Counted from the first letter of the whole stretch, positions 1 to 29,868 are shown. The stretch is DNA of 63,951 nucleotides, filler included, from an uncultured Methanosarcinales archaeon (GCA_964385185.1; 4 parts of 4 records of this genome joined end to end with filler, not necessarily neighbours in it), one strand, 5' to 3'. Made by a program: numbers and translations. The notes: generated from the sequence alone by a model not told the origin.

Positions 1-524
1 TATGCAGCTAATATTTCTGTTACTAGGCAATCTTCTGTTTTCTTTTTAGCATTAAATGCTTTATGATATGCTCCTTGTACCATATGTCTTAAAGCAATGT
101 CTATTCTTCTTTGTGGTGCACATTCAACTGCTTTAGGATATCTTGCACCCCCATATTCGATGGAGATAATCTCTTCTCTTGGAGCACCGTTTTCAATTGC
201 CTTAACTAAGACTTTGATTGGGTTTTCCTTTGTTTGAGCTTCGATTTTCTTTAAGACATTCTCTGTGATTTGATAAGCGTTCTGTGATTTACCAGTAATG
301 TGTCCTGAGGATTTAAAATGTTTTTTTGATTTATGTCCAGGGCACATAATTTTATTCATTAATCGTTCAACAATAAAAATCTTTGATTTGTGGAATCTGT
401 TACCTGCGTATCTTGCACCTGTTTTAGGGACTACTCTAGGTTGTAGTTGAATATAGTCTGCTAGACCAGGATCCTCTACTTTAATGCTTTCTGTTTCCCA
501 TCTATTGAATGCTAATACGGTCAT
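1..524 (-). CDS. rps7: 30S ribosomal protein uS7 (3' end runs off window)
   Basis: Manual translation MTVLAFNRWETESIKVEDPGLADYI...KAIENGAPREE...YGGARYPKAVECAPQRRIDIALR; directly downstream of S12. Confidence 0.95.
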   Translation of the reverse strand, partial: MTVLAFNRWETESIKVEDPGLADYIQLQPRVVPKTGARYAGNRFHKSKIFIVERLMNKIMCPGHKSKKHFKSSGHITGKSQNAYQITENVLKKIEAQTKENPIKVLVKAIENGAPREEIISIEYGGARYPKAVECAPQRRIDIALRHMVQGAYHKAFNAKKKTEDCLVTEILAA

Positions 525-526
525 GT

Positions 527-964
527 TTATTTCCTTGCCTTCTCAACTTTTCCTCTTAATAGGGCGTTGAGAGACTGATCATTTACTTTAAGAACTTGAA
601 ATCGAACTCCAGGGATATCTCCTTTGGATCTTCCTTTCGCCCCTCCAATACATTCGATGATTACTTCGTCGTGTTCATCTACTAGTTTAATGGCTTCATT
701 TCCTGGAACAAAAGCTGTTACTTGTTTACTGTTTTTTACTAATTGTACTCTAACACACTTTCTCATAGCTGAGTTAGGTTGTTTAGCTTCTAATTGTAAT
801 TTCTCTAGAACAATCCCTTTTCCTTGGGAAGAACCTTCCATTGGATCGGATTTTACCTTAAGATTTAATGTTCTGGACTTGTATACAGCGCTTTTCCACT
901 TAGAATCTCTTCTACGCTTCTTTAGCTTATTTGCTGCATTGATTCCTTTTGATTTTTTAGCCAT
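527..964 (-). CDS. rps12: 30S ribosomal protein uS12
   Basis: [16 protein letters not shown] and GDIPGVRF motifs. Confidence 0.98.
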
Positions 965-1125
965 TTTGTGTTATGTATAGTGATTAGGAACTCTAGGGGG
1001 TTTTTAAAGCTTGCGTTTGAAACTGTGCTGAAAAAGGTAAGTTTCAAGGGGTAAACTTGTGATATTTGGTTTGGAAAATATCCTATTATCGATACCTTTT
1101 AATACGAGGCATCTCATAAGTAAGT

Positions 1126-1290
1126 ATGTCATTTACTGCTTTAGAGAAAAAAGTCTTAGTACAGCTGTTAAAAGAGCATATAGCTCAAGTGAAGAAACAA
1201 GAACATGTTCCTTCTCAACAGATTGCTCTGTTATCAGCTGAAGTTAAGTATGAACAAGTTCTTAAGGATATAATGAAGAAGGTTAAGTAA
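1126..1290 (+). CDS. Small helical hypothetical protein, 54 aa (absent from ORF track)
   Basis: ATG...TAA frame MSFTALEKKVLVQLLKEHIAQVKKQEHVPSQQIALLSAEVKYEQVLKDIMKKVK; TATA-like TTTTAATA about 25 nt upstream; fills the gap up to the nusA stop. Confidence 0.7.
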   Translation: MSFTALEKKVLVQLLKEHIAQVKKQEHVPSQQIALLSAEVKYEQVLKDIMKKVK

Positions 1291-1293
1291 GAA

Positions 1294-1722
1294 CTAAACA
1301 ACCTTTATCTCATCTATGTCAAAATATCTTTTTACAATAGATTCAGTATTACGAAGTGTTTCAGCGGCTCTGCCGATTAAGTATCCTCTTGTTTGGTGAT
1401 TTTCTGCTGTTAGTAATACTATTTTCTTTCCATCTTCTTCTTTCTCTTCAACGTTAGCAAGTTTATTAGGATAGACCACATGTTGGATGAATTTTTCAAT
1501 ATCAGGAGAAAATTCGATAATCTTTATAGTTTTTTTAGCCATATGATTTAATTTCTTCACATTAGCTCCTTGTTTACCAATAGCCTTAGCTGCTTGGTTT
1601 TCATCCACAATATAGGTAATGCTTTTATCTCCAGGATAACAATCCTTAACTCTAGCACCTGTCATAGACTCAAACAGACTTATATGTTTCAGAACCTCAG
1701 TATCTAGCTTTATCTTACTCAT
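1294..1722 (-). CDS. nusA: Archaeal NusA (KH domains)
   Basis: AIGKQGANVK and LIGRAA KH motifs; follows L30e. Confidence 0.95.
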   Translation of the reverse strand: MSKIKLDTEVLKHISLFESMTGARVKDCYPGDKSITYIVDENQAAKAIGKQGANVKKLNHMAKKTIKIIEFSPDIEKFIQHVVYPNKLANVEEKEEDGKKIVLLTAENHQTRGYLIGRAAETLRNTESIVKRYFDIDEIKVV

Positions 1723-1984
1723 TTACGCTGACCACTGAAATAGAAAATGTTTTTTTACATACTATACCTAATTCTTCATTAGGAATTTTAAGATTCACAA
1801 TAGGAACTTTTGATACACTCACCATTGCGTTAAGATCTTCTTTTAATTCTGCTGGGCAATTAGCAGCTAGGTAAATCTTTTTTGTTTTACCTGCTCTAAG
1901 ATTTCTTTTTGCCATATTAACACCTATAATCAATGCTTTTGAATCTAAACTTTTCTTAATTTCTACTACTGAATCACTTGCCAC
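1715..1984 (-). CDS. rpl30e: 50S ribosomal protein eL30
   Basis: [19 protein letters not shown]; conserved position after rpoA''. Confidence 0.92.
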
Positions 1985-3131
1985 TCTTCTTTCCTCCCAT
2001 CTTTCTTGTTTTTAAACTTGGAAGACCGGTTCCTACTGGAACAGCCTGATTTAACATGACATTCTCAACTACTGAGTTTAATTCATCGATTTCTCCAATA
2101 AGTGCAGCGTTAATAACGTGTCTAATTGGAGTTTCGAATGATGCTCTTGCTAATACGGATGATTTCTCGGATACAACTCCATATCGAGTGATTCCTTTGA
2201 TACTCCCTGAACTACACATGGTGTCTGAAGCAAGCATGATGTGTCTAATGTCGACATTCAGTCCTTGTGCTTCAATTACTTTGTATACTTCGTTAATAAT
2301 AGCTTGTCTAGCAGCTTCAATTCCAAATACTTCATAAATTTCATTAATATCATTTGAGATAGTTCTTTCTTTTTCAACCCAGTCAAGATCAAACATCTTT
2401 TTTAGGTTGGAACCTGCAGTGATAATGATAAATTCTTCATCTCTTTTAACAGGAAGTACTTGTTTAATTCCTTTAATTCCCTTGATGAATAATTTCTTTA
2501 ATTTTTCTCGTACTTTGTATACAATATTAAGATTATCTTCTTTTGATTTAACTTTTAGGATTAGTCTGTCACCTTCTACTTTAATATTTGAGAATGCTGT
2601 TTTCATTCCTTTTTTGATAGTAGCAGTTAAACCTACCATACCTAACTCTAATTCCTTCATCTTTTCTTTGTCTATAGTAACTTCAATTTTAGCGTCAACA
2701 ATATTGATAACAAATTCTTTAGCAATTTCCTCAAAGACTGTTTCTTTAATGGACATGGCAATCTTTCGAATATCTTTACCTTTGTTATAAGGACTCTTTA
2801 GGAAAATTTCCATCATCGGTGTTTTTAGTGTCTTTCTACCGTCTAAAATCTCGATAATTCTAGGAAGACCCATAGTAACATTCATCTCTGCAACTCCTGC
2901 GAAGTGGAAGGTATTCAATGTCATCTGTGTACCGGGTTCTCCAATGGATTCTGCGGAAACAACTCCTACGGATTCTCCTGCTTCTACCTGCATGTATACA
3001 TACTCTTCAACAGCTCGTTCCATAATCTTAGTGATTTTAGCAGCTGAAGCTCCTTTAGGAAGATGCTTTTCAATCTCGTCCAGAATAGTTACTGGGAGTT
3101 TATCTACGTATTTTTTTATGATAGGGTTCAT
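1974..3131 (-). CDS. rpoA2: RNA polymerase subunit A'' (Rpo1C)
   Basis: [27 protein letters not shown]. Confidence 0.98.
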
Positions 3132-5791
3132 TTTGTAGTCTCGATTAATTTTTTAACATTAATTGTTCCTTTTTCTGATTTTGATACATCAATACCGTCT
3201 TCACCATACATGAATTGGATAATTTTACCTGATGCGTCTCTTACTGTTTGATCGTACTCTACTTTAAGATCCTGCATTGCATTTGCTAATCTTCTATACA
3301 AATATCCTGATTTAGGAGTTCTCAAAGCGGTATCCATTAATGAATCTCGTCCTGTCATAGCTTGGAAGAAGAATTCATGAGGTGCAAGACCTTTTTTGAA
3401 TCCATGTCTGATAAATCCTCTCGCTGCAGGACTTAAATCATTCTTTTTGAAATGTGAAAGTGTTCTTAATTTGTATCCTTTGTCAATTCTCTTACCTCTC
3501 ATAGCTTGTTGACCTACACATGCAGCCATCTGAATTAAGTTTAGAGGATTTCCTCTTGCTCCTGATGCAGCCATAACTACTGAGGCGTTATTTTCACCAG
3601 CATATTGGGAGACAATTTGTCCTGTTTTATTTCTTGCTTTGTTTAGTACTTCTAGGATCTTTAATTCTAATGTTTCTTGCATACTTCTTCCCGGGAAGAC
3701 GTCTAATACTTTTTCTTCATATGCTTTGATTAATTCTGCAACTTCTTTTTCTGCGTTTGTTAATGTTTCTTCAATTTTTGCTCTTGCATCTTCAGGCATA
3801 TCGGAATCCATTAGTCCAGTAGTAAATCCATAGTTCAATAGCACTTGGTTTCCTAGTCTAAACATGTTTTCTAGAATTTTAATTGTTTTAGCAGGTCCAT
3901 ATTGCTTGTGCAAGTCTCGTAGCATTAATCCTGCTTCTTGACCAATACTATTTGCGTCAATATGACCTTTTGTTAATTGTCCGTTGTTGATAACGACTTC
4001 ATTATTTTCTTTTTGTCGTGAATTTCCTACATAGTTAAAGTCAGATGGAATTAATACCGAGAAAATTTCCTTTCCAGTAACTGTTTGTTTTTGTGGTAAT
4101 TTTTTATAATTAGTAATACCAATATTTGAAAGTAATTCAACTGCTTCATTTCTTGTCATACTAATGGAGTCAGTTAGTAAGTAGTTTCCTGAGATACTAT
4201 CTTGTGTACATCCAATAATGGATAGACCGTATCTTGGTGAAATTAGTTGAGTTGGAATTGCCATTAATGTTTCTGCTTCTGCACGTGATTCCTCATTTTG
4301 AGGGATGTGTAGATTCATCTCGTCTCCATCGAAATCTGCGTTATATGGGTGACAGACAGCAGGATTTAATCTGAATGTTTTACCAGGAAGGACTTTAACT
4401 TTGTGACACATCATGCTCATTCTGTGGAGTGATGGTTGTCTGTTAAAGATTGCAATATCTCCATCCATTAAGTGTCTTTCAACAACATATCCTGGTTGTA
4501 ATTCTTCAAGAGCAGCTTCTTTAGTTTCGTCGGTAATCTTCTTCTTTTTACCGTCTGGTCTAATAACATAGTTACATCCTGGGTATTTAGTAGGTCCTCG
4601 CTCAATAAATGCTTTTAGATATTTCATGTTCCAAGGAGTAATGGTCTCTGGAACGGAAAGTTTCATTGCAATAATCTTAGGAACTCCTACTTCATCCAAT
4701 GCAAGCATAGGATCAGGAGAGATAACTGTTCTTGCGGAAAAGTTTGTTCTTTTTCCAGCTAGATTGTGTCTAATTCTTCCTTCTTTACTTTTAATTCTTT
4801 CACTGATTGTTTTAAGTGGTTGTCCTGATCGGTGTCTAGCAGGAGGTAATTGTGCTACGGAATTATCAAAGAAGGTAGTAATGTGATATTGTAGTAAGTC
4901 CCACAAATCCTCGATAATAATTTCTGGAGCTCCAGCGTTAATATTTTCGAATAGTCTTTGATTGATTCTTACAATGTCTCCCATCTTGTGGGTAAGATCG
5001 TCCTCACTTCTTTCACCTGATTCTAAGGTAATAGAAGGTCTCATAGTTACGGGTGGAATAGGCATAATTGTAATGACCATCCATTCAGGTCGTGCAGTTT
5101 CTGCATTAATTCCAAACATTTCTACATCTTCATCAGAGATTTTTTCAAGTCTCATTCTAATTTCAATAGGTGAGATTCTTTTATCATTCTCTAGGAAAGT
5201 TGTAGGTTTTTCTAATGCGATTTTAAATTGTCGAGCAGAACAGTGTGCACATTTATTTGCATTCTTCATACTGGTAAGCACTTTTTTCATGTATGCTTTC
5301 CTTCCGGAGAATCCAATTTCTTTATCAATACGTGCAAATTCTTTTTTTGCTTTGTCAATCTTAATTTTAGGTATTAATACTCTTCCACAATCTCTACAGG
5401 TAGATTTTAGTAAATTTAATACTGTTGCAATATGAGAAATGTGAATGATAGGACGAGCTAATTCCATGTATCCAAAGTGACCTGGACATTCTTTTAATTT
5501 AGCTCCACAAGTTTTACACCGTAGTCCTGGATCGATAACTCCTAGTCTGATGTCCATTAGTCCACCGTCAACAGGATATCCTTCTTTATCGTACAATTCT
5601 GGAGTAACTACTTTAGCGACAGCCATTTTTTTAATGTCTTTAGGACTCAGCATCCTAAATTCAATAGCTTTTACTTGTTTAAAGATTCCCACTTCAGTAG
5701 GTTCTAGTTCTTTCTTTTCCTCAGTAGATTCTGAAGATTCATCACTAGGTTCTTCCATTGGTTTCTCTACCGGTGCTTCTTCGTCTGCCAT
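3128..5791 (-). CDS. rpoA1: RNA polymerase subunit A' (Rpo1N)
   Basis: Catalytic [17 protein letters not shown] zinc site. Confidence 0.99.
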
Positions 5792-5792
5792 T

Positions 5793-7595
5793 TTAGTATT
5801 TATTCTCCAAGATTAATTTTGGATAGATTCCAAGTGATTTAAACTCGTCTAGTAATAGTTTGAATGCATAACTGATTTCAATATCATTTATTTCTGCGTG
5901 TTCAGTGGATACTGGTTCTATCTTACTATCATGGTAAGAATCATAGAATCCCATTAATCCTGTTTCTTCTGAAACGGGAATAATAGTTCTGTCTGAATCG
6001 AATCTTTCTTTCAATAGTAATGCAGCTCCGTGAGCGATGAAGGTATCCTTCTCCATCTCTCCTAGTCTTAATCCTCCTTCCTTAGCTCGTCCTTCTGTAG
6101 GTTGTCGAGTAAGTAGTTGGATTGGACCTCTTGCTCTTGAGTGGATTTTGTTAGCAACCATATGCTTTAATTTAAGATAATACATGTTTCCTACGAATAC
6201 TCTTGCTTGGTATTTAATTCCTGAAGCTCCATCATACATGGTTTCTGTTCCGTCGTCTCTAAATCCTAGAGTAAGTAATTCTTTTCTAATTGCATCTTCA
6301 GATTCTCCATCGAATGTCGTACCATTAATAGGTCGTGCAGCCAAGGATCCTGTTTTTCCTGCAATAAGTTCTAATAAGTGTGCAACCGTCATACGTGAAG
6401 GGATGGAATGCGGTGAAAACATAATGTCAGGAACCATACCGGATGAGGTAAATGGCATGTCTGCATTAGGTACAATCATTCCGATAACTCCTTTTTGTCC
6501 GTGTCGTGAGGTAAACTTGTCTCCAATCTCTGGAACTCGTGAATCTCTCACTCTTACTTGGACTAATTTGTTACCTTCTACGTTTTCTGATAGTAAAATA
6601 AAATCTACAACTCCTTTTTCTCCGTGTCTTAATGCAACTGAAGATTCTCTTCTAGTTGAAGAGGCAAGGTTGTATTCATCTAATCCTGATAAGAATCTAG
6701 GAGGGGATGTTTTTCCGATGATAACATCATCTTCACCTACTTTTGCTTCTGGGTAGATAATTCCATCTCCTTCAATTAATCGGTAATCTTTTTCTGATTT
6801 GTATCCTTTGATATCTTTATCAGGAACTGTAATAGTGTCTTGTAATCCACCTGAGTATCGTAATTCTTCTGCAATGGATGGTCTGAAGTAAGTTGATCGT
6901 CCTAATCCTCGGTCAACAGCACCTTGATTTAAGACAATTGCATCTTCCATGTTGTATCCTTTGTAACTCATAACAGCTACAATAACATTTTGCCCTGCAG
7001 GATGTTTCTCATACTCTGCAATATCGTGCATAATTGTTTTTACAACAGGATTTTGAGGATAATGAAGAATATTTGTATCCATGTCCATTCTTACGTTAAA
7101 ATTAGCAGCGTAGAATCCTAAAGCTTGTTTTTGGTTCTTTGAACCTGCGTTTAGTTTTGCTGATGGATTAAAGTTTCCGTAAGGGACTAAAGCTGTAGTT
7201 AATCCTAACATTGCAAGTGGACTAATTTCTAGGTGTGTAGTATCTTGAGTAATGCTTTTTTCATCGAAAGCAACTAATGCATCTTCTTCTTCTGATGCGT
7301 CTAGGTATTCAATAATTCCTTGTTCAACAAGGTCATTCCATGTCATTTCTTTGCTCTCTAATTGTTTAAGATGTTTTTCTGTTAACAAAGGAGCTCCTTC
7401 TTTAACGACAATGATAGGTCTTCTTGCTCTCCCTTTATTGGATTCTATATGAATCTCATCAATTTGATTATGGAATTGTAGGTTTAAGTTTTTAGAGATA
7501 ACTCCCTTTCTTCTTTCTTGCTTTACCTGTTTGATAAAGTCTTCAGGATTATCTATAGTCCCTACATATTTTCCGTTTAGGTATATTTCAGTCAT
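5793..7595 (-). CDS. rpoB1: RNA polymerase subunit B' (Rpo2C)
   Basis: GDKFTSRHGQKG, GGLRLGEMEKD. Confidence 0.98.
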   Translation of the reverse strand: MTEIYLNGKYVGTIDNPEDFIKQVKQERRKGVISKNLNLQFHNQIDEIHIESNKGRARRPIIVVKEGAPLLTEKHLKQLESKEMTWNDLVEQGIIEYLDASEEEDALVAFDEKSITQDTTHLEISPLAMLGLTTALVPYGNFNPSAKLNAGSKNQKQALGFYAANFNVRMDMDTNILHYPQNPVVKTIMHDIAEYEKHPAGQNVIVAVMSYKGYNMEDAIVLNQGAVDRGLGRSTYFRPSIAEELRYSGGLQDTITVPDKDIKGYKSEKDYRLIEGDGIIYPEAKVGEDDVIIGKTSPPRFLSGLDEYNLASSTRRESSVALRHGEKGVVDFILLSENVEGNKLVQVRVRDSRVPEIGDKFTSRHGQKGVIGMIVPNADMPFTSSGMVPDIMFSPHSIPSRMTVAHLLELIAGKTGSLAARPINGTTFDGESEDAIRKELLTLGFRDDGTETMYDGASGIKYQARVFVGNMYYLKLKHMVANKIHSRARGPIQLLTRQPTEGRAKEGGLRLGEMEKDTFIAHGAALLLKERFDSDRTIIPVSEETGLMGFYDSYHDSKIEPVSTEHAEINDIEISYAFKLLLDEFKSLGIYPKLILENKY

Positions 7596-7596
7596 T

Positions 7597-9093
7597 TTAT
7601 ATGTTCAATGGCTTTAAGCCAAGGTTTTTTAGTGATTTTAAAATTTCTTCTTCGTCTGCATCTCCTGAAATACTTGTTAAGAGAGCAAGATTTTTTCTTA
7701 ATCCAATATTAGTTCCTTCTGGAGTTTCAATTGGGCATAATCTTCCTAGATGTGTACAGTGCAGTTCTCTCGCTGCGAAATTTTCTTGGGAAGCTGATAA
7801 TGGTGATACAACTCTTTGTAGATGAGACATAGTCTCTAAGAAATTTAATCGTTGAATTCTTTGTGAGATTCCTTTTCTTCCCCCTACCCAATTACCCGTA
7901 GCCATTGCTGAATACATTCTTTGAGTTAACAGTTTGTCTCTGATAATAACTTTGATTGACGGGAACTTTCCTCGTTTTACAATTCTTTGGAAGTTGTATA
8001 ATAAATCTTGAATTAATACTTTTAGATTTACTCTGAAAAGATCTGATAGTAATTCTCCTGCTAGTTTTAGTCTTTTGTTACCGTAATGATCCTTGTCGTC
8101 TAATTTTGTTTTACCAGATTCAGCAACAATAAACTTTTTCATTAATTTACATAAGTTGTGTGCTTTTACCATTCTATCATCACTTGTTAAACCAAGATTT
8201 GGAAGAAGGTATCTGTCTAAGATATCGTGCATTCTCTCAAGTCTAATTTCTTTTGTTTGTGTGATTCCAATTCTTCTTGCAATGTAATCGATAGCTTCTT
8301 CTTGCGTTTTAATTTCAATGTATTCGTATAGATTGATTAGGATTTCATCAAATTGTTTTTTCTCTGAGATGAACTTCATGATGTCTTCATCTTTAAGGAT
8401 TCCCAGAGCTTTGATGATAACAACTAATGGTACTCTTTTTACTCTTGTGAATGAGAGGTAGAAAATTCCATCTTTCAATCGTTCGATTGTATGTGGTATC
8501 TTGAAACTTCCTGATTCTGAGAATAATTTTCCAACATAGGGTGAAGTGGTATGTCCTTTTTCAACTAAGAATTTGTTAGACGCTAAATCTTCAATATCGA
8601 TTAGTACTTTTTCTGTTCCGTTGATAATAAAGTATCCTCCTGGATCATCTGGATCTTCTCCTTTAGAGATAACATCTTCACGACTGAGACCGGATAGATG
8701 ACAGAAGTTTGAATGTAACATCACTGGAATGTTTCCAATCTGTGTAGTAAATGATTCTCTTTGTACTTCGTTAATATGAGCAGAAACTTCGATAAAGACA
8801 GGAGCTGAGTAGGTAATTTTTCTAAGCCGTGCTTCAACAGGGTAGATATCTCTTTTGGATCCATCTGCTTCTGTGATTTCAGGCTTTGTTACCCAGATTT
8901 TGTCTAGTTTGATTTTAAAATCGTCAATATTATGTGGGATAATCGTAGGAATAATTTCTTTGTTTTCTTCAACAATTTTTTGTAGTTCATTTTCTATGAA
9001 GTTGTTAAAACTTCCAATATCTGAATCTACAAAAGACCGTTCTTCAAAGTACTTTTGGATTAAAATTTTTCCTTGATCAAGCATTGATAACAC
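7597..9093 (-). CDS. rpoB2: RNA polymerase subunit B'' (Rpo2N)
   Basis: DPGGYFIINGTEKV, CPIETPEGTNIGL. Confidence 0.98.
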   Translation of the reverse strand: MLSMLDQGKILIQKYFEERSFVDSDIGSFNNFIENELQKIVEENKEIIPTIIPHNIDDFKIKLDKIWVTKPEITEADGSKRDIYPVEARLRKITYSAPVFIEVSAHINEVQRESFTTQIGNIPVMLHSNFCHLSGLSREDVISKGEDPDDPGGYFIINGTEKVLIDIEDLASNKFLVEKGHTTSPYVGKLFSESGSFKIPHTIERLKDGIFYLSFTRVKRVPLVVIIKALGILKDEDIMKFISEKKQFDEILINLYEYIEIKTQEEAIDYIARRIGITQTKEIRLERMHDILDRYLLPNLGLTSDDRMVKAHNLCKLMKKFIVAESGKTKLDDKDHYGNKRLKLAGELLSDLFRVNLKVLIQDLLYNFQRIVKRGKFPSIKVIIRDKLLTQRMYSAMATGNWVGGRKGISQRIQRLNFLETMSHLQRVVSPLSASQENFAARELHCTHLGRLCPIETPEGTNIGLRKNLALLTSISGDADEEEILKSLKNLGLKPLNI

Positions 9094-9319
9094 ACCTATA
9101 GAATATTGTTTCTCCGACGTATGGATTTTGTCGGGTAATTTTGATAATATCTCCTTCTTTTGCTTTTAGATTAGCAATAGAAGCATCTTTAATATTGATT
9201 TTAGGAAGACTGATAGTAGTGATCTTGTAGTTTTCTAGCAGTTTTTCTTTCTCTTTTTCAGAAAGCTTCGCTTGCTTAGGTACAAGATAATGTTTCGTGA
9301 TATCAAATTTTGAGGCCAT
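9077..9319 (-). CDS. rpoH: RNA polymerase subunit H (Rpo5)
   Basis: HYLVPK...LPKI...GDIIKITR...YRCV. Confidence 0.96.
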   Translation of the reverse strand: MASKFDITKHYLVPKQAKLSEKEKEKLLENYKITTISLPKINIKDASIANLKAKEGDIIKITRQNPYVGETIFYRCVINA

Positions 9320-9471: not shown

Positions 9472-9475
9472 ATTA

Positions 9476-9872: not shown

Positions 9873-10604
9873 CTAATATTGAATTCCAAATTGTTCTAAA
9901 ATGTATTGAGAGACTTCACCTTTTCTTACTCCAAAATCAATTCTAATATTCATTTTATCCACACAATGTTTAAATTGACTTTTACTGTCAAGATGAAAGA
10001 ATTCCCTATAGGGAGTCAATCCCAGATAATGTGGTGGAACTATTGCATTAAAATCTAGTTGGTAAATATATTCTCTAGCTAATGAGTATCCGATTGTGTG
10101 ATCTAATTTGGCAGTCAATGAATTGGAAAAACAATCATGATCCAACCTGTCCCTATTTCTTTGAGAATCATTCCCATTCCTTGCAAATGCTAATCGCAAC
10201 ATAATGTATTCATCGATTGCTGCTATCATTTCAGTCATTGCCCCATTCGGTTGAGTGCCAAATTTTTGATGATAGGAAAAACCATGACAAAAATGACTTA
10301 CTTCTTCGAATACTGTTATCCAGGCGTCATGGGGTGTAACTTCTTCTGCTTCATTAAATTGATTGAGAACTTCTGGTTTAAAATAAATCATAGGAAGTAG
10401 ATCTCCTGTGAATTTATTTTGATTTAGGATAACACACCCGAGACAATTTGATAATCTTTCTATAATACCTGGGATAAATTTTTCAAGCCTAGGAAGAGAT
10501 TTATCAGTAATAAGATGATTTTTGGCATTTTCACCAATTTGGATATCATGCATTTTCTCAATTTGCGATTGTGCTAGATCTATAGCTTCGTAAATACTTG
10601 CCAT
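9873..10604 (-). CDS. Hypothetical protein (EExxH motif, possibly zincin-like)
   Basis: 243-aa ORF with FEEVSHF and a downstream TEMIA Glu. Confidence 0.7.
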   Translation of the reverse strand: MASIYEAIDLAQSQIEKMHDIQIGENAKNHLITDKSLPRLEKFIPGIIERLSNCLGCVILNQNKFTGDLLPMIYFKPEVLNQFNEAEEVTPHDAWITVFEEVSHFCHGFSYHQKFGTQPNGAMTEMIAAIDEYIMLRLAFARNGNDSQRNRDRLDHDCFSNSLTAKLDHTIGYSLAREYIYQLDFNAIVPPHYLGLTPYREFFHLDSKSQFKHCVDKMNIRIDFGVRKGEVSQYILEQFGIQY

Positions 10605-10660
10605 TGTTGTCTATCACACCATAGATATATTTATTTATTGTTATTTATAATAAGAGAAAA

Positions 10661-10984
10661 ATCCCTCCCCCCAGATTACTACGTTAAGTATGAATCCTGC
10701 AGGTTAACTAAGTAATGGAATGGTTTATGATGCAATGTGCGAAAGAGTTAAATACCTAATAAACAGAGAATTAATCAATGGTTAATAATATTTTGATTCA
10801 GGAGACTCCCAGTAGTAAAGTAACCATTTATACAGTAGTAAGTACTGTGATTAATCTGATTATCGGTGTGCTTATATTACTAATAAGTGCCATAGTAATT
10901 AAGGGAAAACTTCAAGTTGGAAATTATTTGATTTTTATTGTACCTTCTTTTGTCGTTATTGGATTGGTCGTAATAATTTTTCTT
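10661..10984. repeat. 324-bp perfect direct repeat, copy 1 (copy 2 at 15814-16137)
   Basis: Identical by eye from ATCCCTCCCCCCAGATT to ...GTAATAATTTTTCTT; includes promoter and first 69 codons of a membrane protein. Confidence 0.95.
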
Positions 10985-11170
10985 ATTCTTCGAAGCAAAG
11001 ACAAAGAAGATTCTTCAGGTACACTACATATAATCTCTAAGGATGTTGCAGAAAAAGCACTCTTTATTATCAATGAACGTATAAAAAATTCTGAAAAGAT
11101 TACTCCTGAAAACCTTTCTAAATATATTAAAAAAATGAAGAAAAACTTAGCTAAATTAGCACAATCTTAA
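10778..11170 (+). CDS. Chimeric membrane protein: N-terminus identical to 15931 ORF, unrelated basic C-terminus
   Basis: First 69 aa identical to 15931..16404, diverging exactly at the repeat boundary. Confidence 0.65.
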   Translation: MVNNILIQETPSSKVTIYTVVSTVINLIIGVLILLISAIVIKGKLQVGNYLIFIVPSFVVIGLVVIIFLILRSKDKEDSSGTLHIISKDVAEKALFIINERIKNSEKITPENLSKYIKKMKKNLAKLAQS

Positions 11171-12288
11171 ATTTTATCAACTTCTTCAAAAATTCTAAAT
11201 AATTGGTGTAATCCTAATCTAATCTTTTCAGTGAGTAAATATTCATCTGTTGAATGAGTTTTTTTGCCATCTGCAATCGCTATAGTGAGACTAGGTAATC
11301 CCAAACTAATTGGATAATTAGAGTCTGTACTTCCAACATCATCTATTGTAGGAATATCTAGTTCTTTATGTACACTTGTGATAATTGTTTTGAGTTGTTC
11401 ATTTTCCATATTTCCGCCAGGTCTATCACCCAATATTTTACTTTCAACTTTAACAGAAGTTACTTGACTAATAATTTCTTCAATCTCTTTTATTTTTTGT
11501 TTTAATATTTGACCATCAATAGATCGTACCTCAACACTAAATTCTGCTTTTTGTGGAATAGCATTAACTGATGTGCCCCCTTGAATTGTTCCTATATTAA
11601 AAGATGTTTTTGGATCAGAAGGATAATTAATATTAGAAATTTTCTTAATTATTTTTGTGGCTTCTATAATTGCATTAGGTTTTCCAAATTCTCTCCAACT
11701 GTGACCGCCTTCACCTATGATAGTTATATTACATCTATGACTGCCAACTACTGTCGTAGTTAATCTTCCAAGTTTATGTCCTTCTATTACAATATGTGCC
11801 TTGACTTTAGTTTTATCCACATTATCAAAATAATATTTCATCCCTCTCAGATTACCTAATCCTTCTTCTCCAACATTGTAGAGAAATACCATTGTATGTT
11901 TAGGAGTAATATTATTTTCTTTGATATATTTCATTAAGTAGAGCATTGCTGTATCACCTGTAGCATTATCACAAATGCCTGGACAATATATAATTCCTTT
12001 CTCTTCCTTAATTTCTAAAGGTGTCCCTTCTGGAAATACTGTGTCTGCATGTGCTGAAAAAATAATAAGATTATCAGAAGATCCTTTTAATGTAATAACA
12101 AGATTTCCTTCTTTGTCAATATGAATATTTTGGTATCCTATATCTTCTACTAGTTTTTTGAAGTAAAGAACTCTTTTTTCTTCTTTAAATGGTGGAGAAG
12201 GAACTAATGCTAACTTTTTCATATCTTCCATAAACTGATTGTAAAACTTTTCAATATATTCTTTAATGTTATCCATTGTTAAATCCAA
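11167..12288 (-). CDS. M20/M25/M40 family metallo-hydrolase (peptidase T-like)
   Basis: SAHADTV, GICDN, GEEGLGNL, GEGGHSW, GSTDSN, THSTDE motifs. Confidence 0.9.
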   Translation of the reverse strand: MDLTMDNIKEYIEKFYNQFMEDMKKLALVPSPPFKEEKRVLYFKKLVEDIGYQNIHIDKEGNLVITLKGSSDNLIIFSAHADTVFPEGTPLEIKEEKGIIYCPGICDNATGDTAMLYLMKYIKENNITPKHTMVFLYNVGEEGLGNLRGMKYYFDNVDKTKVKAHIVIEGHKLGRLTTTVVGSHRCNITIIGEGGHSWREFGKPNAIIEATKIIKKISNINYPSDPKTSFNIGTIQGGTSVNAIPQKAEFSVEVRSIDGQILKQKIKEIEEIISQVTSVKVESKILGDRPGGNMENEQLKTIITSVHKELDIPTIDDVGSTDSNYPISLGLPSLTIAIADGKKTHSTDEYLLTEKIRLGLHQLFRIFEEVDKI

Positions 12289-13342
12289 TTACCTCTCTGT
12301 GTAATTCTTCAATTAACTCATTAGATTCTTCTGGGTTCATAACATTATAAACTTTAGCATTTACAAGTTTTTGAAATGTTGATTTACGATAATATGCTTC
12401 TTTAAGTATTGGGACATTAAAAAAGAATGGAGCTGTTATTCCACATTCTTTTGTAAAGTGAAAAGCACCATAAGCACCCATATAATCTGTAGAACACATT
12501 GCTACTGCAACAACATTCTTTTTAATATTATTATCTGATAAAAGAGCAGGTATTGAAGCCCACATTACATCTCCCCCTGGTTCTAAAATTATAACATCTG
12601 GATTTTGCTTTTCTGTCTCATTTAATATTCCATATAATGTTGGTAAATATTCAGATGGTTCTAAATTATATGTAGTTACTAATCCAAAATCTACTTTATC
12701 AAGAAAAGAATCAGCTCCAGCATCTCTATGCGAATAGGTATCTCTTATATTTCCTGAACCATTTGTTTTGGAAGCAGCTACTTTCATCCCCTTACCTTTA
12801 AACCCTTTGATTACTTTACCAATAAGGGTAGTTTTACCACACTCTGCACTTGAACCTAATCCTAATATTATTGGAATTTTTCCTTCATAGGTTAGAGATG
12901 GTTTGTAAGGTGTTAAATCCGTAAGATTACATACCTTATCATTTTCACTAACTAATCCTTCTAATCTAATATTTACTGGTTGATGACCTATATGTTCAGG
13001 TACTCTTCTCACAGTTCCGACAATAGCGGATGATGATAAAATTTGAAAGATGTCTCCATTTTTACAAATAACTCCTTCTTTTGAAATGTCTCCTGAAATA
13101 TTTGTCCCACTTTGCCTAATACCAAATACACCAACCATATAATCTCCTTTGCAAAGATGTTGAAATTCTCCTTCTAAATCTAGTTGATCAATATATCCAC
13201 CATCACTACTGAGAACTTCAAAAACCCCCATACTTCCAGGAATAGCAACACCATTATTTTTAAGGTCAAGACTTCTAAGATTTGATGGAAATCTTATATT
13301 GTTTGATACTACTTTAAATTCATGGTTCAACATGGTTATCAC
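12269..13342 (-). CDS. DUF1611-like P-loop protein
   Basis: GSSAECGKTT P-loop, KTNGSGNIRD..HRDAGA..DFGLVTTY, DVIILEPGG. Confidence 0.7.
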   Translation of the reverse strand: MITMLNHEFKVVSNNIRFPSNLRSLDLKNNGVAIPGSMGVFEVLSSDGGYIDQLDLEGEFQHLCKGDYMVGVFGIRQSGTNISGDISKEGVICKNGDIFQILSSSAIVGTVRRVPEHIGHQPVNIRLEGLVSENDKVCNLTDLTPYKPSLTYEGKIPIILGLGSSAECGKTTLIGKVIKGFKGKGMKVAASKTNGSGNIRDTYSHRDAGADSFLDKVDFGLVTTYNLEPSEYLPTLYGILNETEKQNPDVIILEPGGDVMWASIPALLSDNNIKKNVVAVAMCSTDYMGAYGAFHFTKECGITAPFFFNVPILKEAYYRKSTFQKLVNAKVYNVMNPEESNELIEELHREVIGFNNG

Positions 13343-13345
13343 TTA

Positions 13346-14752
13346 CTAATGTGTATAAAATGTTCTTATCTTACGATAATTATCAGCTGCCATTAATAGT
13401 CCTTCTTTTTGGAAATTACCAGACATTCTAAATCCTCCAAATGGAGAATGTTCAAAACGGAATCCTGGTTGTCCATTCCAACTAAACTGTCCCACATTAA
13501 TCCTACTAAAATAGGATTTTGCTTCTTTCTCATCTTCTGTGACTATAGCACCTGCAAGACCATACTTTGAATTGTTTACAATTTGTAGTGCATCCTCCAT
13601 AGAATCTACCCTAATAATTGGGGCTACAGGTCCAAAAGTCTCTTCTACGACTAGTTCTGCATCTTTTGGTACATTGTCAATAACTGTAGGAGAATAAACA
13701 GCTCCTTTCTTATAATGCCCTAATAATACATTTCCACCATTTCTAACTGCATTATTAACTCTTCTTTCTATACACATTGCAGATTTATTACTTATAACAC
13801 ACCCTACGTCTGTATTTTCATCATATGGATTTCCATATTGTAATTTTTCAACTAAAGGAAGAAACTCATCTAAAAATATGTCTGCTATATTTTCATGGAT
13901 TAATAATCGTTTTATTGATGTACAACGTTGTCCAGAATTTTTAAAAGCCCCTAATGCTATTGTAGCAGCCATTTTTATATCTGCTTTTTTTGAAACATAC
14001 AATGCACTGTTGCCTCCAAGTTCATAAACCTGATGTAAAAAAGGATTTTGACTTTGTGCTATAGCTTGAGCAACTTTATGTCCATTTCTTAGACTTCCTG
14101 TGTAGGCTAAAACCTCTAATTGTTCACAGTTTAACATTGCTTCAAGTGCTTTAACAGGATCTGAAGAAGTTACTATTTGATATTGAGATGAAGGAAATCC
14201 TGCTTCATAAAGTAATTTAAAAAAGGCAACAGCAGATAAAGGAGTTTTTTCTGAAGGTTTTAATACCATATTTGCATTAGCAAGGAAATTTGGAACAACT
14301 TTATGAGATACCTGATTTATTGGATGATTAAAAGGTGTAATAGCTGCCACTAAATTTACTGGCGTTTGGATAACATCCATCATATTATGTGATTCATTAA
14401 CTCTAAACCTATCACTAATATCTACAATATCTTGTTCATCACTATCTGTATTAATTAAAAATTCATGAGAAAGTTGTATTAATGCTTCTGTTCTTCCTAC
14501 TTCATAAAGTGAATCCTTTTTACAAAGACCAGATTCTTTACTAATTAAAGTAGCTAAAACTTGTTTTTGTTCTTGAACTATATTTCCTAAACGTTTAATT
14601 GCAGATAATCTTTCAGTTTTATCTAATTTTTCAGTATTTTGAGCAACTTTTTTTAAAATATCAGTAATTTCCCGAGAAGAATAATCTTTTACTACTCCAA
14701 CTAACTCATTATCATATGGACTATGAACAATTAATTGTTCTGATATTTCCAT
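13346..14752 (-). CDS. Aldehyde dehydrogenase, phosphonoacetaldehyde dehydrogenase (PhnY)-like
   Basis: ITPFNHP, KPSEKTP, ELGG, KNSGQRCT, EETFGP; DSLYEVGR and SPFGG..SGN..KEG resemble PhnY as recalled. Confidence 0.85.
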   Translation of the reverse strand: MEISEQLIVHSPYDNELVGVVKDYSSREITDILKKVAQNTEKLDKTERLSAIKRLGNIVQEQKQVLATLISKESGLCKKDSLYEVGRTEALIQLSHEFLINTDSDEQDIVDISDRFRVNESHNMMDVIQTPVNLVAAITPFNHPINQVSHKVVPNFLANANMVLKPSEKTPLSAVAFFKLLYEAGFPSSQYQIVTSSDPVKALEAMLNCEQLEVLAYTGSLRNGHKVAQAIAQSQNPFLHQVYELGGNSALYVSKKADIKMAATIALGAFKNSGQRCTSIKRLLIHENIADIFLDEFLPLVEKLQYGNPYDENTDVGCVISNKSAMCIERRVNNAVRNGGNVLLGHYKKGAVYSPTVIDNVPKDAELVVEETFGPVAPIIRVDSMEDALQIVNNSKYGLAGAIVTEDEKEAKSYFSRINVGQFSWNGQPGFRFEHSPFGGFRMSGNFQKEGLLMAADNYRKIRTFYTH

Positions 14753-14846
14753 TGTTAATTAATAGGAATCAGTTCTGATTTATAAAGTCAACGCATAAAT
14801 AGTATGATATAATTTATACTAAACTAATAATTTAAAAAAATTAGAT

Positions 14847-15470
14847 TCATCTAACAAACAAAAACTTTTCTTTGTCTTTATTTAATTCTATAATAGAATG
14901 TCCTTTGTTTCCATAAATCTTTGCATCTTTGCCATAGAGTTTATTTAATTCCAAATCTTCACCTAGTAATAAATCATCTCTTTCTTCTATAAATTGTTTC
15001 ATCTTTGTAGGTATTCTGGTGATAAATTCATCTACTCTATATTGTTTATTATTTACCTTGATTGTAAAGTCTTGTTGTAGTTTTAGGATTGCTTCATTCT
15101 CTTTCAGTTGTAGTTCAGGATAGGCTTTTTCTTTTGTTATGTCTTTGCCTTCAAATACAGTGAAGTTTAACAGAGTATCATCTACAACTTCTTCTAAAAA
15201 TAGAGATGGATTTGATACTGTAGTTGGGTTTCTGTTGGTGAATTGTATCTCTCCATCATTTAGTGAGGTAAATCTGAGAAAACACTCTGTGGCTAGGCTA
15301 TAGGCTGATTTAACTAGGGTTGATACACTGGCTGTGTCTTCTGTTTCCATATTATTTTCCAGTATTGAGTTTTGAGCGACTCTTAACCACATAAAGAATA
15401 ATACTGTTAAAACTAACATAATGGCTATTAAAATAAACTGATGAATTTTGCAGTAATTTGCATCACACAA
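14847..15470 (-). pseudogene. Membrane-anchored hypothetical protein, apparently 5'-truncated
   Basis: No ATG before the hydrophobic FILIAIMLVLTVLFF segment; abuts an oppositely oriented fragment head-to-head. Confidence 0.5.
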
Positions 15471-15778
15471 AGCAAGATTTAGATAAGGAAGCAGGTAAGG
15501 TTGTAAAATTAAGTGCTAAAGCTCAAAAAACAATGCTTGAAGAGTATCAGAGATTATTTCAACTTTTCAAAGATACAAAGAAATTTCAGGAGATTTTGCG
15601 ACAATTATTAGTATTAATGCATGCTCAAATTTCTAATTCTGGAAATAAAGAATTATTAGAGATGATTGAACGGGTTGAAGAGGATGTTGACAGAGAAGAT
15701 AGACAAATAAAAAGTCAAGGCATTAGAAAGGCACAACAAAGTAGAATTAAAGGTACTAAATTAAGCTTTAGGAAATAG
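15458..15778 (+). pseudogene. C-terminal fragment of a coiled-coil protein
   Basis: Frame opens after TAA at 15434 with no ATG or promoter space; helical, charged composition. Confidence 0.5.
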
Positions 15779-15930
15779 AAAAGTAGGGCCCAGAACAATG
15801 TCCTGAGCCCTGGATCCCTCCCCCCAGATTACTACGTTAAGTATGAATCCTGCAGGTTAACTAAGTAATGGAATGGTTTATGATGCAATGTGCGAAAGAG
15901 TTAAATACCTAATAAACAGAGAATTAATCA

Positions 15931-16404
15931 ATGGTTAATAATATTTTGATTCAGGAGACTCCCAGTAGTAAAGTAACCATTTATACAGTAGTAAGTACTG
16001 TGATTAATCTGATTATCGGTGTGCTTATATTACTAATAAGTGCCATAGTAATTAAGGGAAAACTTCAAGTTGGAAATTATTTGATTTTTATTGTACCTTC
16101 TTTTGTCGTTATTGGATTGGTCGTAATAATTTTTCTTGTTAAGAGTAATAAATCCTATAATTATTATGTGATGGGAGATGGTGTCAAAAGCATTTATAGT
16201 TTTTTGTCAACTAAAGAATCTATGGCTAAATTCGAAAAAATAACAGATATCCAGATTTCTCAAGGTATGTGGCAAAAAGTTTTTAAAATTTATAGTGTAT
16301 CTTTTCAAACTGCTGGTTCAAATATTTCTGAGGTCGTCTTCCACAACATTGATGATCCTGTAAAGTTGAGGAACCTAGTGAGTAAGAAATTGGGACTAAA
16401 ATGA
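15931..16404 (+). CDS. Membrane protein with bacterial PH (bPH_2, YdbS-like) domain
   Basis: 2 TM segments then FEKITDIQISQGMWQKVFKIYSVSFQTAG. Confidence 0.85.
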   Translation: MVNNILIQETPSSKVTIYTVVSTVINLIIGVLILLISAIVIKGKLQVGNYLIFIVPSFVVIGLVVIIFLVKSNKSYNYYVMGDGVKSIYSFLSTKESMAKFEKITDIQISQGMWQKVFKIYSVSFQTAGSNISEVVFHNIDDPVKLRNLVSKKLGLK

Positions 16405-16928
16405 GTGAACGGTCAATTCAAGCTAGTGGGAAATTCCTAACTTCTATCGTACTCCGACCTTTGAAATTTGATCTTTTGGTATTGTTTGCTAGTACATATT
16501 TTAGTGTGTTTTTGATAAAACCTGATTTGATCACTCATTCATTGTCTTTGGGTTTTCTTATTACAGTACCTTTTTTGATTATGGGCATAGTATATCAAAG
16601 GTTGTTTTTTAAATCGTACCAACAAACTGTCAGTGGGGACAAAATAGTTTTCAGATACGGAGTACTAACAATGAAAGAAAAAATTATTCCCAAATCTAAA
16701 ATTACAGATGTTTCTATTAGCCAAAACTTTTTCGAAAAGAACTTAAATATATTTCGTATTCAGATTAATACTGCTGGATCTCATATAAGGCGTGCAAATT
16801 TTGAGGAACATATAGGGGGATTAGGGGGGCTTCCAAGGTCAGGTATGAAGAGCGAAATTAAATTTGAGGGAGAATTCATCGGTATTACTCGTCCAGAGCA
16901 GATAAAAAAATTGATTGAGAGAAAGTAA
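16401..16928 (+). CDS. Membrane protein with bacterial PH (bPH_2) domain
   Basis: 2 TM segments then YGVLT..EKIIPKSKITDVSISQNFFEK..NI..IQINTAG; ATGA overlap with upstream paralogue. Confidence 0.85.
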   Translation: MSERSIQASGKFLTSIVLRPLKFDLLVLFASTYFSVFLIKPDLITHSLSLGFLITVPFLIMGIVYQRLFFKSYQQTVSGDKIVFRYGVLTMKEKIIPKSKITDVSISQNFFEKNLNIFRIQINTAGSHIRRANFEEHIGGLGGLPRSGMKSEIKFEGEFIGITRPEQIKKLIERK

Positions 16929-17007
16929 TAATTATAAAATTTCTCATTTTTTGGAATCTAAGTCTACTTTGTTTGTAATTTTATATAAGTAATCATTCTT
17001 TTGTAAG

Positions 17008-17039
17008 AAAAAAAAGGCTCAGAACAATGTCCTGAGCCC
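17008..17039 (-). terminator. Hairpin plus U-tract downstream of tRNA-Tyr
   Basis: Minus strand GGCTCAGGAC-ATT-GTTCTGAGCC followed by T8. Confidence 0.6.
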
Positions 17040-17043
17040 TGGA

Positions 17044-17169
17044 TCCCTCCCCCCAGATTCGAACCGGGAACCTTTCGGTCTCAGCTGACTTGGTGTCATT
17101 CAGTGCTTTATACACAGTCTCCAAGCGATTATCTACAGCCGAACGCTCTAGCCATTGAGCTAGGGAGGG
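17044..17169 (-). tRNA. tRNA-Tyr(GTA) with 53-nt anticodon-loop intron (about 17080-17132)
   Basis: CCCTCCC/GGGAGGG acceptor with archaeal C1-G72, TTCGG-CTGTAG[intron]A-CCGAA, TTCGAAT T-loop; 73 nt after splicing. Confidence 0.93.
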
Positions 17170-17259
17170 AATAGTAATTAGTTTATTGAATTGCTTTATA
17201 AAAGTTCTTGTTAAGAAGTTGTGCATTGGGCAAAGAATATGGTAAATAGTATTGAGCAG

Positions 17260-17375
17260 TCACCACTACTACTGGCACACACAGTGTGCAGTAGTGGTGA
17301 AAACAGTATTTCTTTAAGGGCTCGCAGTCGTAAGACTGCGAGAGTGGGCACTCTGTGAGTGCCTCTGTTTTTTTT
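17260..17375 (+). other. Three consecutive hairpins followed by a T-run (candidate ncRNA or palindromic-repeat cluster)
   Basis: TCACCACTACT...AGTAGTGGTGA; CTCGCAGTC-GTAA-GACTGCGAG; GGCACTC-TGT-GAGTGCC; then poly-T. Confidence 0.55.
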
Positions 17376-17409
17376 AATTGCTCACAAATACTTAATCTAG
17401 AACTAAATC

Positions 17410-21654: not shown

Positions 21655-22026
21655 ATGAGTACAGGTAAACTGAGTGAACAAGATGACTTAAACTCAATTT
21701 TTGTTAGAAATAAAACAAGAAAGAAATTGAAATGTTTAGGTTGTGGAAAAGAGTTTTTGACAGATATATGTCATAGATTTTGTAGTACTTGTAAGAAACG
21801 AAATGGTCGGAAAGGAGATACTTCAAAATATGAAACTAGATCTCATTCAGAACTTGACTTTAATCCAAATTCACCTCTAAAAAGCTTATACGAACGAGTA
21901 ATAGATTATACAAACGGCCTATATACATCCACAACGAGCACTCCACCTTCTGGCAATACATTATTCCAAATACCCTCAAGAAGGAACAGAACCACAAATC
22001 CTACCCAAATAAAGTACGTTTTATAA
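21655..22026 (+). CDS. Small zinc-finger protein
   Basis: CLGCGKEFLTDICHRFCSTC. Confidence 0.75.
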   Translation: MSTGKLSEQDDLNSIFVRNKTRKKLKCLGCGKEFLTDICHRFCSTCKKRNGRKGDTSKYETRSHSELDFNPNSPLKSLYERVIDYTNGLYTSTTSTPPSGNTLFQIPSRRNRTTNPTQIKYVL

Positions 22027-29692: not shown

Positions 29693-29750
29693 AGAAATAT
29701 AGACTCTGATATCTATTATAAAAGTATCGTTTAGGAAAAGTGTTAAGAAT

Positions 29751-29868
29751 AAAAAACGCCAACGCCCGGAACAACTACACAAGTTAGTTGACCCCTACTT
29801 CGGATTGGAGGATTTCACTTCGTTCAACCCTCTAATGCTCATGAAAAGAAAAAACGCCAACGCCCGGA
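29751..29868. repeat. 20-bp direct repeat of tRNA-Ser 3' end enclosing a 78-bp hairpin insert
   Basis: AAAAAACGCCAACGCCCGGA at 29751-29770 and 29849-29868. Confidence 0.88.

Follow-up and report, generated by a model that had tools for sequence, protein, structure and literature searches.

A stretch of 63,951 bp from an uncultured Methanosarcinales archaeon (GCA_964385185.1), hereafter the window, was found to carry the 3' end of a tRNA-Tyr gene three times, the copies bounding two tandem units that have common ends, different contents and no integrase gene. In the assembled sequence the order is flank, core, unit A, core, unit B and core/tRNA gene, where the core is the repeated 17-bp tRNA end. 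With little more than even confidence, we favour the explanation that these are two decayed, integrase-less islets of the type known as cis-mobilizable elements (CIMEs), and that unit A would be a derivative of unit B that took up foreign DNA in a manner resembling specialized transduction. The left boundary of this DNA lies inside a gene, at an in-frame fusion with a fragment of another gene.

The cores and the common ends of the two units

The 17-mer ATCCCTCCCCCCAGATT matched exactly at positions 10661, 15814 and 17043, with no further site on either strand of the whole window when up to 3 mismatches were allowed, and three matches were obtained in 0 of 100 shuffles. The third copy lies inside tRNA-Tyr, and the spacing of the cores gives a length of 5153 bp for unit A (10661-15813) and of 1229 bp for unit B (15814-17042), so that the triple occurrence and the unit sizes reported by a first-pass annotation of this DNA are both confirmed here. 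Identity among the three copies extends over exactly 17 bp, that between copies 1 and 3 stopping at both ends. As read from the sequence, the 17-mer takes in 3 nt at the end of the T-loop, the 3' strands of the T-stem and the acceptor stem together with A73, and one further nucleotide downstream; in archaeal tRNA-Tyr, C1-G72 and A73 form the identity set. The gene was found by ARAGORN only with the intron option and was missed by default ARAGORN and by Rfam. Attachment (att) sites at intron-bearing tRNA genes will escape routine annotation, as in the present case, where the tRNA on which the whole arrangement hinges was invisible to default tRNA and Rfam scans. The features that define the units are given below (coordinates, strand, description).

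10661..10677, strand not assigned: core copy 1, a distal att-like partial tRNA 3' end (exact 17-mer)
15814..15830, strand not assigned: core copy 2, at the A/B junction (right flank of A, left arm of B)
17043..17059, strand not assigned: core copy 3, inside the functional tRNA gene
17040..17170, minus: tRNA-Tyr(GTA), its anticodon loop interrupted by a 53-nt intron (aragorn -i, c[17040,17170])
10678..10984, plus: arm, unit A copy, consisting of a 100 bp non-coding leader/promoter and the first 69 codons of a bPH_2 gene (repeat comparison)
15831..16137, plus: arm, unit B copy, running on into the intact bPH_2 gene
15777..15813, minus: hairpin A, at the right end of unit A, with a 12-bp stem on the tRNA strand (RNA fold, repeat comparison)
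17006..17042, minus: hairpin B, followed by 8 U on the tRNA strand, terminator-shaped and directly after tRNA-Tyr (RNA fold)
10604..10660, minus: presumed original sequence downstream of tRNA-Tyr, a T-run without hairpin, then the promoter region and start of a 243-aa gene (9873..10604)

Direct repeats identical to the 3' part of a tRNA, one of them inside the intact tRNA gene, are what is looked for in an islet inserted at a tRNA, and they are present here. Three cores whose common part is limited to the tRNA-derived 17 bp fit what would be the classic outcome of repeated recombination at one tRNA att site.

To the right of the core, the two units remain identical over a long arm. Positions 10661-10984 and 15814-16137 (324 bp, core included) were 100% identical, in agreement with the first-pass annotation, and the end of the arm falls exactly on a codon boundary. 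The right ends are likewise conserved: 15791-15830 and 17020-17059 were identical over 40 bp, and the 14 bp to the left of this identity matched at 10 positions, which brings the similarity to 54 nt at 93%. The hairpin present in both units has a simple stem of 12 bp and, on the tRNA strand, a loop of 3 nt; it directly adjoins the tRNA 3' end. In hairpin A, positions 15791-15813 are identical to the B copy and 15777-15790 account for the 10/14 matches. Folding of the minus-strand RNA gave -20.0 kcal/mol for hairpin A (z -3.5, with 2/200 shuffles as good) and -19.3 kcal/mol for hairpin B (z -4.6, 0/200), the plus-strand folds being weaker (-13.9 and -12.9 kcal/mol, respectively). It had been proposed that the right-end hairpin is present in both units with one change that preserves pairing. 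The presence in both units holds, but the second part is true of one strand only, as the sole difference within the 27-bp hairpin leaves a G.U pair in the minus strand, which is that of the tRNA, but a C.A mismatch in the plus strand.

The outermost flank is of a different nature. At the leftmost core no hairpin was detected (-1.8 kcal/mol, 176/200 shuffles as good), and repeat comparison disclosed no similarity between 10604..10660 and the flanks of the hairpins. At one of the related loci described below (L002), the same tRNA-Tyr likewise runs directly into a T-run. Because it shows a plain T-run without hairpin on the tRNA strand, in the same arrangement as in L002, the leftmost flank looks like undisturbed tRNA downstream sequence. 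In the favoured explanation, hairpin B would re-supply a terminator-shaped structure to tRNA-Tyr.

Searches with the arm disclosed little outside this locus. When 10600-17200 was compared by blastn with phage and plasmid collections, the arm DNA had no match in either; no phage match was obtained for any part of the query, and the only plasmid match was a 152-nt stretch of the aldehyde dehydrogenase gene of unit A at 69%. Within the arm, no k-mer that could represent an integrase-binding repeat was enriched beyond multiple-testing noise (best P about 5e-4). In a collection of 5.8 billion proteins, the peptide encoded by the arm was present in two forms only: 2 of 98 candidates of 86-275 aa passed, both of them the window's own, and among proteins of 30-85 aa the single candidate did not pass.

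The fused gene and the contents of the units

We characterized the genes of both units, which are as follows.

15931..16404, plus: bPH_2 membrane protein, 157 aa, intact, unit B (Pfam bPH_2, E 8.6e-10, residues 76-149)
16401..16928, plus: second bPH_2 membrane protein, 175 aa, intact, unit B (Pfam bPH_2, E 1.3e-12)
10778..11170, plus: chimeric open reading frame (ORF), 130 aa, unit A; residues 1-69 are the two-helix membrane N-terminus of bPH_2 and residues 70-130 the C-terminal end of a TrmB-like regulator
10985..11170, plus: 3' fragment of the TrmB-like regulator gene, last 61 codons (family with a winged helix-turn-helix and a PLD-like domain); left edge of the foreign interior
11167..12288, minus: M20/ArgE-DapE family deacylase (Pfam Peptidase_M20 1.2e-18 and M20_dimer 5.1e-18; NCBIfam DapE-ArgE 3.4e-28, below cut-off); GC content at third codon positions (GC3) 0.152
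12269..13342, minus: P-loop protein with a MobB-like domain (Pfam MobB 2.3e-07); GC3 0.142
13346..14752, minus: aldehyde dehydrogenase (Pfam Aldedh 2e-102); GC3 0.117, the lowest of 52 ORFs
14847..15470, minus: 207-aa ORF with a hydrophobic N-terminus, no family
15458..15778, plus: 106-aa ORF, Lys/Glu-rich, no family (Pfam, PHROGs, NCBIfam); ends 9 nt before hairpin A

The two units thus differ in content as had been stated, with two bPH_2 ORFs in B and, in A, the M20, P-loop and aldehyde dehydrogenase genes, the chimeric ORF and two family-less ORFs. The two bPH_2 proteins of unit B are about 39% identical over 64 aa (tblastx). In unit A, the bPH_2 gene is cut after codon 69, and the domain at residues 76-149 is kept only in B. 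Codon 69 is joined in frame to the last 61 codons of the TrmB-like gene, at a short microhomology (an F-L motif).

The origin of the second half of the chimera was investigated at the protein level. A HMMER (phmmer) search of 1.84 billion representatives with the chimera yielded six matches, namely the intact bPH_2 protein, a 60-aa protein (P0004) and four longer ones (P0005-P0008; 318, 325, 334 and 214 aa). The last ~65 residues of the four longer proteins aligned to about residues 62-130 of the chimera with 39-52% identity (E 4e-8 to 4e-4), and since the tail matches the C-terminal ends of longer TrmB-like proteins, it represents a real gene fragment. An open run of 61 codons beyond the breakpoint would arise by chance with a probability of 0.011-0.016. 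An AlphaFold2 (AF2) model of the 318-aa member P0005, built on a 5-sequence alignment, had a mean predicted local distance difference test score (pLDDT) of 76 and a predicted template modelling score (pTM) of 0.54. When it was compared with the PDB by Foldseek, all 8 matches with E<=0.001 were chains of TrmBL2, an archaeal regulator and chromatin protein, and the TrmB sugar-binding domain appeared at rank 45. The low TM-scores (0.30/0.35) are as expected for two domains in a different orientation. On the basis of the alignments and of this predicted model, we take the tail of the chimera to derive from an ordinary gene for a TrmB-like regulator, of which it is the 3' end.

The position of the joint is informative as to its mechanism. 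The 'FFL(I/V)LRS' motif of the TrmB-like family aligns over the breakpoint 'IIFL|ILRSK', and therefore the joint sits in a few shared bases. As judged from the sequence, the left junction is the product of an illegitimate, microhomology-guided recombination and not a cassette-exchange site. The direction of change would be from B to A, because B has the intact bPH_2 gene and A only codons 1-69.

The composition of unit A points outside the host. Among 52 ORFs, the three metabolic genes have the lowest GC3 values, the remainder being at or above 0.188, and this points to a recent arrival from a more AT-biased genome; on this basis the three genes look foreign. For the aldehyde dehydrogenase, the best NCBIfam model was phosphonoacetaldehyde dehydrogenase, with 404 bits against a cut-off of 636. 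The P-loop protein had no informative sequence match in the PDB, and the 207-aa ORF had no match in Pfam, PHROGs or NCBIfam and no usable match in the Atlas. No resemblance was found between the interior of A and either the interior of B or the rest of the window.

The lack of an integrase, also noted in the first-pass annotation, was confirmed by profile searches. Pfam models of integrase, transposase or recombinase families matched 0 of 12 local ORFs and 0 of the 53 remaining ORFs of 100 aa or more in the window (65 in total); integrase families were absent from 15 ORFs searched with PHROGs, where the sole match was a weak one to an HNH endonuclease (21655..22026), and from 10 ORFs searched with NCBIfam. 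According to the ORF map, the intergenic gaps within the units are too short for an integrase gene. The sole gene fragment in the units is that of the TrmB-like regulator, which is not a hallmark of mobile elements, and no remnant of a backbone gene was found in them. Both units keep a core at either end while carrying no integration or transfer genes, which is an organization characteristic of CIMEs.

Further candidates were considered and discarded. The 243-aa protein of the left flank was examined as a possible hidden recombinase. Judged by its structure neighbours in the Atlas (DA1-like and M78 rows with TM 0.40-0.52, and unnamed clusters up to 0.73), it resembles metalloproteases rather than recombinases. 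A split integrase of the Sulfolobus spindle-shaped virus (SSV) type (PMC7253208), which integration divides into int(N) and int(C) at the two ends of the element, with the att core within the reading frame, was not found either: no ORF of at least 50 aa crosses core 1 or core 2, and the ORFs at the unit ends bear no similarity to integrases. The cores are flanked by the hairpin and the non-coding leader, and core 3 is covered by one such ORF only (16993..17226), which runs across the tRNA gene itself. Finally, an integron was rejected, as no tyrosine-recombinase family (intI) was detected by Pfam among the 65 window ORFs.

Origin of unit A and alternative explanations

The repeats, the gene fusion, the bias in composition and the lack of an integrase are direct observations, and from them we infer the following order of events. 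A B-type element would have been integrated at tRNA-Tyr in a donor cell, and there would have undergone an aberrant excision with one end in its bPH_2 gene and the other in a TrmB-like gene of the neighbouring donor DNA, as in the formation of lambda-dgal, which is specialized transduction by aberrant excision. The resulting circle would have kept the core and the arm, gained donor DNA from downstream of the tRNA, including the donor's hairpin, and lost the rest of B. It may then have entered a B-carrying cell and inserted there. An integrase acting in trans would have used the 17-bp core for this, and homologous recombination the 324-bp identical arm; both routes would give the observed unit order. 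From codon 70 onward, unit A would represent 4.8 kb of chromosomal-type DNA of another, more AT-biased archaeon, and unit B a 1.2-kb remnant made up of the arm, two bPH_2 genes and the hairpin. Since the donor's own hairpin would have been taken along, hairpin A would be similar but not identical to hairpin B at its outer edge. We believe this route to be the most economical one because it needs one illegitimate event and one insertion.

Several observations weigh against this explanation. P0004 is identical to the tail of the chimera from Lys76 on (55 residues) and differs in the five residues before; DNA able to encode its start is not present in the window, even with up to 3 mismatches. As deduced from these sequences, P0004 reflects a second left junction of the same interior elsewhere, about 18 nt further in, which the proposed route does not predict. 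The two orphan ORFs beside hairpin A have a host-like GC3 (0.245 and 0.224), and therefore the interior of A may be a mosaic. Divergence at the hairpin is uneven, with 4 differences in 14 bp next to 347 bp with none, so that an aberrant excision must assume that the native flank of the donor resembled the hairpin of B. Unit B carries no replication, transfer or recombination gene that would mark it as a former full mobile element. No empty site, circular form or donor context was found among relatives; the five related tRNA-Tyr loci described below share only the tRNA and no flanking genes. Moreover, the tandem is that of the assembled sequence, and by reasoning on the repeats an integrated B plus a free A circle would give an identical assembly graph. 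Among independent contigs, 10 carried the intact bPH_2 protein (the longest of 21,160 bp), 7 the chimera (22,378 bp) and 6 the right-flank protein (21,160 bp). These are compatible with the favoured explanation: they fit assemblies that break at the 324-bp repeat, and neither confirm nor exclude the joint between A and B.

These last points bear on the first alternative, that the tandem is a product of assembly. The chromosome would then carry B only, and A would exist as a free circle, or as the sole unit of a co-existing strain, and have been threaded through the arm. By reasoning, only read pairs longer than the arm could discriminate between this and a tandem, and the longest contig with the chimera contains neither the intact bPH_2 protein nor the right-flank protein, for each of which the longest contig has the length given above. 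Against this, the reads must contain the junction of hairpin A, core and arm, because the other copy of the arm has a different left flank; one of the two, a circle or a tandem, must then be real at the least. Without a replication gene, a circle of 5.2 kb is unlikely to persist alone, and the window is a single 64-kb stretch across both repeats. We consider an assembly product unlikely.

An origin in place is the second alternative, and we regard it as equally improbable. In this case, B would have given rise to a second, adjoining copy, either through a further integration or through unequal crossing-over between the cores, and the interior of the left copy would have been replaced through two illegitimate junctions. 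The complete identity to B of both kept parts (324 bp and 40 bp) is as expected after a recent duplication, and the microhomology at the left junction and the foreign-looking GC3 of the metabolic genes are also in keeping with such a replacement. However, it needs two illegitimate junctions instead of one, and the right junction would lie inside the stem of the hairpin, yet a 12-bp stem survives there, a coincidence unless the 10 matching bases of 14 represent homology.

The first-pass annotation had gone further and proposed an element that captures cargo and, its interior being exchangeable, builds up a cassette array. Its view of a tandem integration stands as far as the three tRNA-end cores bounding two integrase-less units with common ends are concerned, and is not supported as regards a platform for cargo capture. 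Such a platform, i.e. an active non-autonomous family in which the hairpin-core-arm att module serves for the exchange of cargo and the integrase is encoded elsewhere, would be in keeping with 347 bp of identical end sequence around unrelated interiors, with a core that is the tRNA 3' end and the lack of an integrase in cis, with the occurrence of the tail fragment next to another left neighbour (P0004), and with a putative tyrosine-recombinase fragment 1.3 kb from the same core at locus L003, but we judge it the least probable of the alternatives. A defined recombination site would be expected, whereas at the arm boundary one gene is interrupted and continues, from a microhomology on, as a fragment of another; there are only two units, and two forms of the arm peptide among 5.8 billion proteins; the arm has no DNA match in phage or plasmid collections and no enriched motif; and the pattern belongs to a known class.

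A related and more far-reaching possibility, which we also hold to be doubtful, is that the 347-bp module is a working att site of still-active minimal elements in small-genome archaea, which would be mobilised in trans and, through aberrant excision, shuttle blocks of chromosomal genes between strains, in this instance an operon with a hydrolase and a dehydrogenase linked to a regulator. The junction in P0004 and the scars at L003 and at a tRNA-Ser gene (see below) would be further products of this activity, if this reading were true. Gene shuttling of this kind has been proposed for tycheposons and would not yet have been described in such archaea.

Relatives, known systems and the surrounding region

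Related sites were sought by scanning the collection of genome contigs (genome_contigs) with a 24-nt piece of the 3' half of tRNA-Tyr. Five loci were obtained, on contigs of metagenome-assembled genomes (MAGs) labelled Nanoarchaeota, Woesearchaeota, 'archaeon' and, twice, 'uncultured Methanosarcinales'; the tRNA-Tyr gene, intron included, matched 5 archaeal MAG contigs at 74-79%. At L003 (CAYWRI010000024.1, 1-1500), the tRNA-Tyr core occurs twice, each time with the same 36 nt of flank, at a spacing of 131 bp and next to a scaffold gap of 100 N. The contig starts with a 26-aa end of a reading frame, located 1.3 kb from that core, in which Pfam detected nothing. Its only two sequence matches in the PDB were the catalytic-Tyr C-termini of XerA (4a8e, E 0.44) and IntI4 (2a3v, E 0.91), both of them non-significant. 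At L003, the end of the contig may have truncated an element that carries an integrase and occupies the same att site.

Within the window, the intron-bearing tRNA-Ser(GGA) gene (c[29854,29979]) has a 20-nt direct repeat (29751-29770 and 29854-29873, 103 bp apart), which is composed of 6 nt of downstream A-run and 14 nt of the tRNA 3' end up to the T-loop and overlaps the start of an arginase-family ORF (28856..29782). This looks like a second, almost empty att scar. Together with L003, it suggests that tRNA 3' ends in these genomes commonly receive insertions that later decay.

We compared the locus with integrated elements known from other organisms. CIMEs are described as integrase-less units that keep their att sites, occur in tandem, and are formed and moved by accretion (PMC5704250), and in Dehalococcoides tandem islands behind ssrA are bounded by 20-bp repeats, 15 of them lacking the integration module (PMC3146451). 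The CIMEs related to ICESt1/ICESt3 of Streptococcus thermophilus and the ssrA islands share with the present units the bounding direct repeats, which derive from an RNA gene's 3' end, the lack of integrase and transfer genes, the tandem arrangement with a hybrid att site in between and the metabolic or accessory cargo. In contrast to CIMEs, the units described here are in an archaeal host, are very small (1.2 and 5.2 kb) and have no related integrase-bearing element in the 64-kb window. In addition, they share a gene-internal breakpoint beyond the att sites, and bear no backbone-gene remnant that would speak for descent from a larger self-transmissible element.

Tycheposons of Prochlorococcus are tRNA-linked islands, for which it has been proposed that imprecise excision takes along adjacent host DNA, which is then deposited in another host (bioRxiv 10.1101/2020.12.28.424599). 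As in the present locus, neighbouring islands there are split only by a partial copy of the tRNA, degenerate remnants occur and capture is attributed to imprecise excision. Tandem units split by a partial tRNA copy were found here too, whereas the tyrosine recombinase that is the hallmark of tycheposons was not detected with Pfam, PHROGs or NCBIfam; moreover, the host belongs to another domain of life, and the illegitimate joint is visible as an in-frame fusion.

In archaea, there are reports of tandem integration, loss of the integrase after integration and exchange of modules by homologous recombination between tandem elements (PMC8371274), as well as arrays of tyrosine-recombinase elements that arise from the re-use of one site (PMC6563490). 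Common integration at tRNA genes, re-use of one site, lost integrases and exchanged modules are the points of resemblance to such arrays. However, those arrays consist of proviruses, plasmids and casposons with recognisable backbone genes, and the units described here have none and carry no split int gene of the SSV type. Finally, integron arrays resemble the locus in having promoter-proximal units in a row, each ending in a short hairpin-containing repeat. They differ from it in that here there is no intI, the repeat is a tRNA 3' end with a terminator-shaped hairpin and not attC, unit A comprises six ORFs on both strands, and the boundary lies inside a gene.

Known processes account well for the locus, whose structure is real as sequence. 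It opens no new class of system, and the interior-swap pattern is already known from bacterial genomic islands. Its value is that of a base-pair-level record, in a small-genome uncultured archaeon, of the gain of a metabolic operon at a tRNA hot spot, with the in-frame fusion preserved. Mobile elements and gene flow are poorly known in such archaea, which makes the locus a useful worked example. The capture junction is nicely preserved, and the junctions offer a target for read-level tests.

The surroundings of the units are those of a piece of archaeal chromosome with a G+C content of 35%. The left part of the window contains the following genes.

within 3..9319, minus: ribosomal proteins S7 and S12 and a NusA-like KH protein (ORF map, Pfam)
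within 3..9319, minus: split RNA polymerase subunits, a Rpb1-type subunit over two ORFs and a Rpb2-type subunit over two ORFs

A small ORF at 9077..9319 is taken by us to be RpoH, and genes for L15e, FtsZ, EF-1alpha and EF-2 follow further along the window. Between the RpoH-like ORF and the 243-aa gene, two further tRNA-like genes were noticed on the minus strand (about 9383-9475 and about 9485-9625). Their insertions apparently lie outside the anticodon loop; one of them reads as tRNA-Lys(UUU) with the insert in the D-loop. Both were missed by ARAGORN with or without the intron option, and Rfam at a permissive threshold over 9200-18700 gave as its sole match a weak, sub-threshold tRNA at 9390-9444 (27.3 bits, E 0.026).

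Just upstream of tRNA-Tyr, at 17250-17372 on the plus strand, there are three stable hairpins in a row followed by eight T, with no match in Rfam; a small RNA is possible. One hairpin with its flank (17307-17338) recurs in inverted orientation at 18567-18598 with 81% identity, and the pair brackets ORFs of 244 and 58 aa. Directly upstream of the L15e gene, a 124-aa ORF (18620-18994, minus) without a family match is extremely acidic, Glu/Asp-rich and internally repeated. A 310-aa ORF (19729-20661, minus) matches the thrombospondin type 1 repeat of Pfam (TSP_1, E 8e-07), an unusual finding in an archaeon. Between 20700 and 34600, numerous ORFs without Pfam match, including ones of 580 and 291 aa, surround tRNA-Glu (25967-26044) and the tRNA-Ser gene. 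The weak HNH-endonuclease match at 21655..22026 also falls inside this stretch, and the region could hold other foreign DNA.

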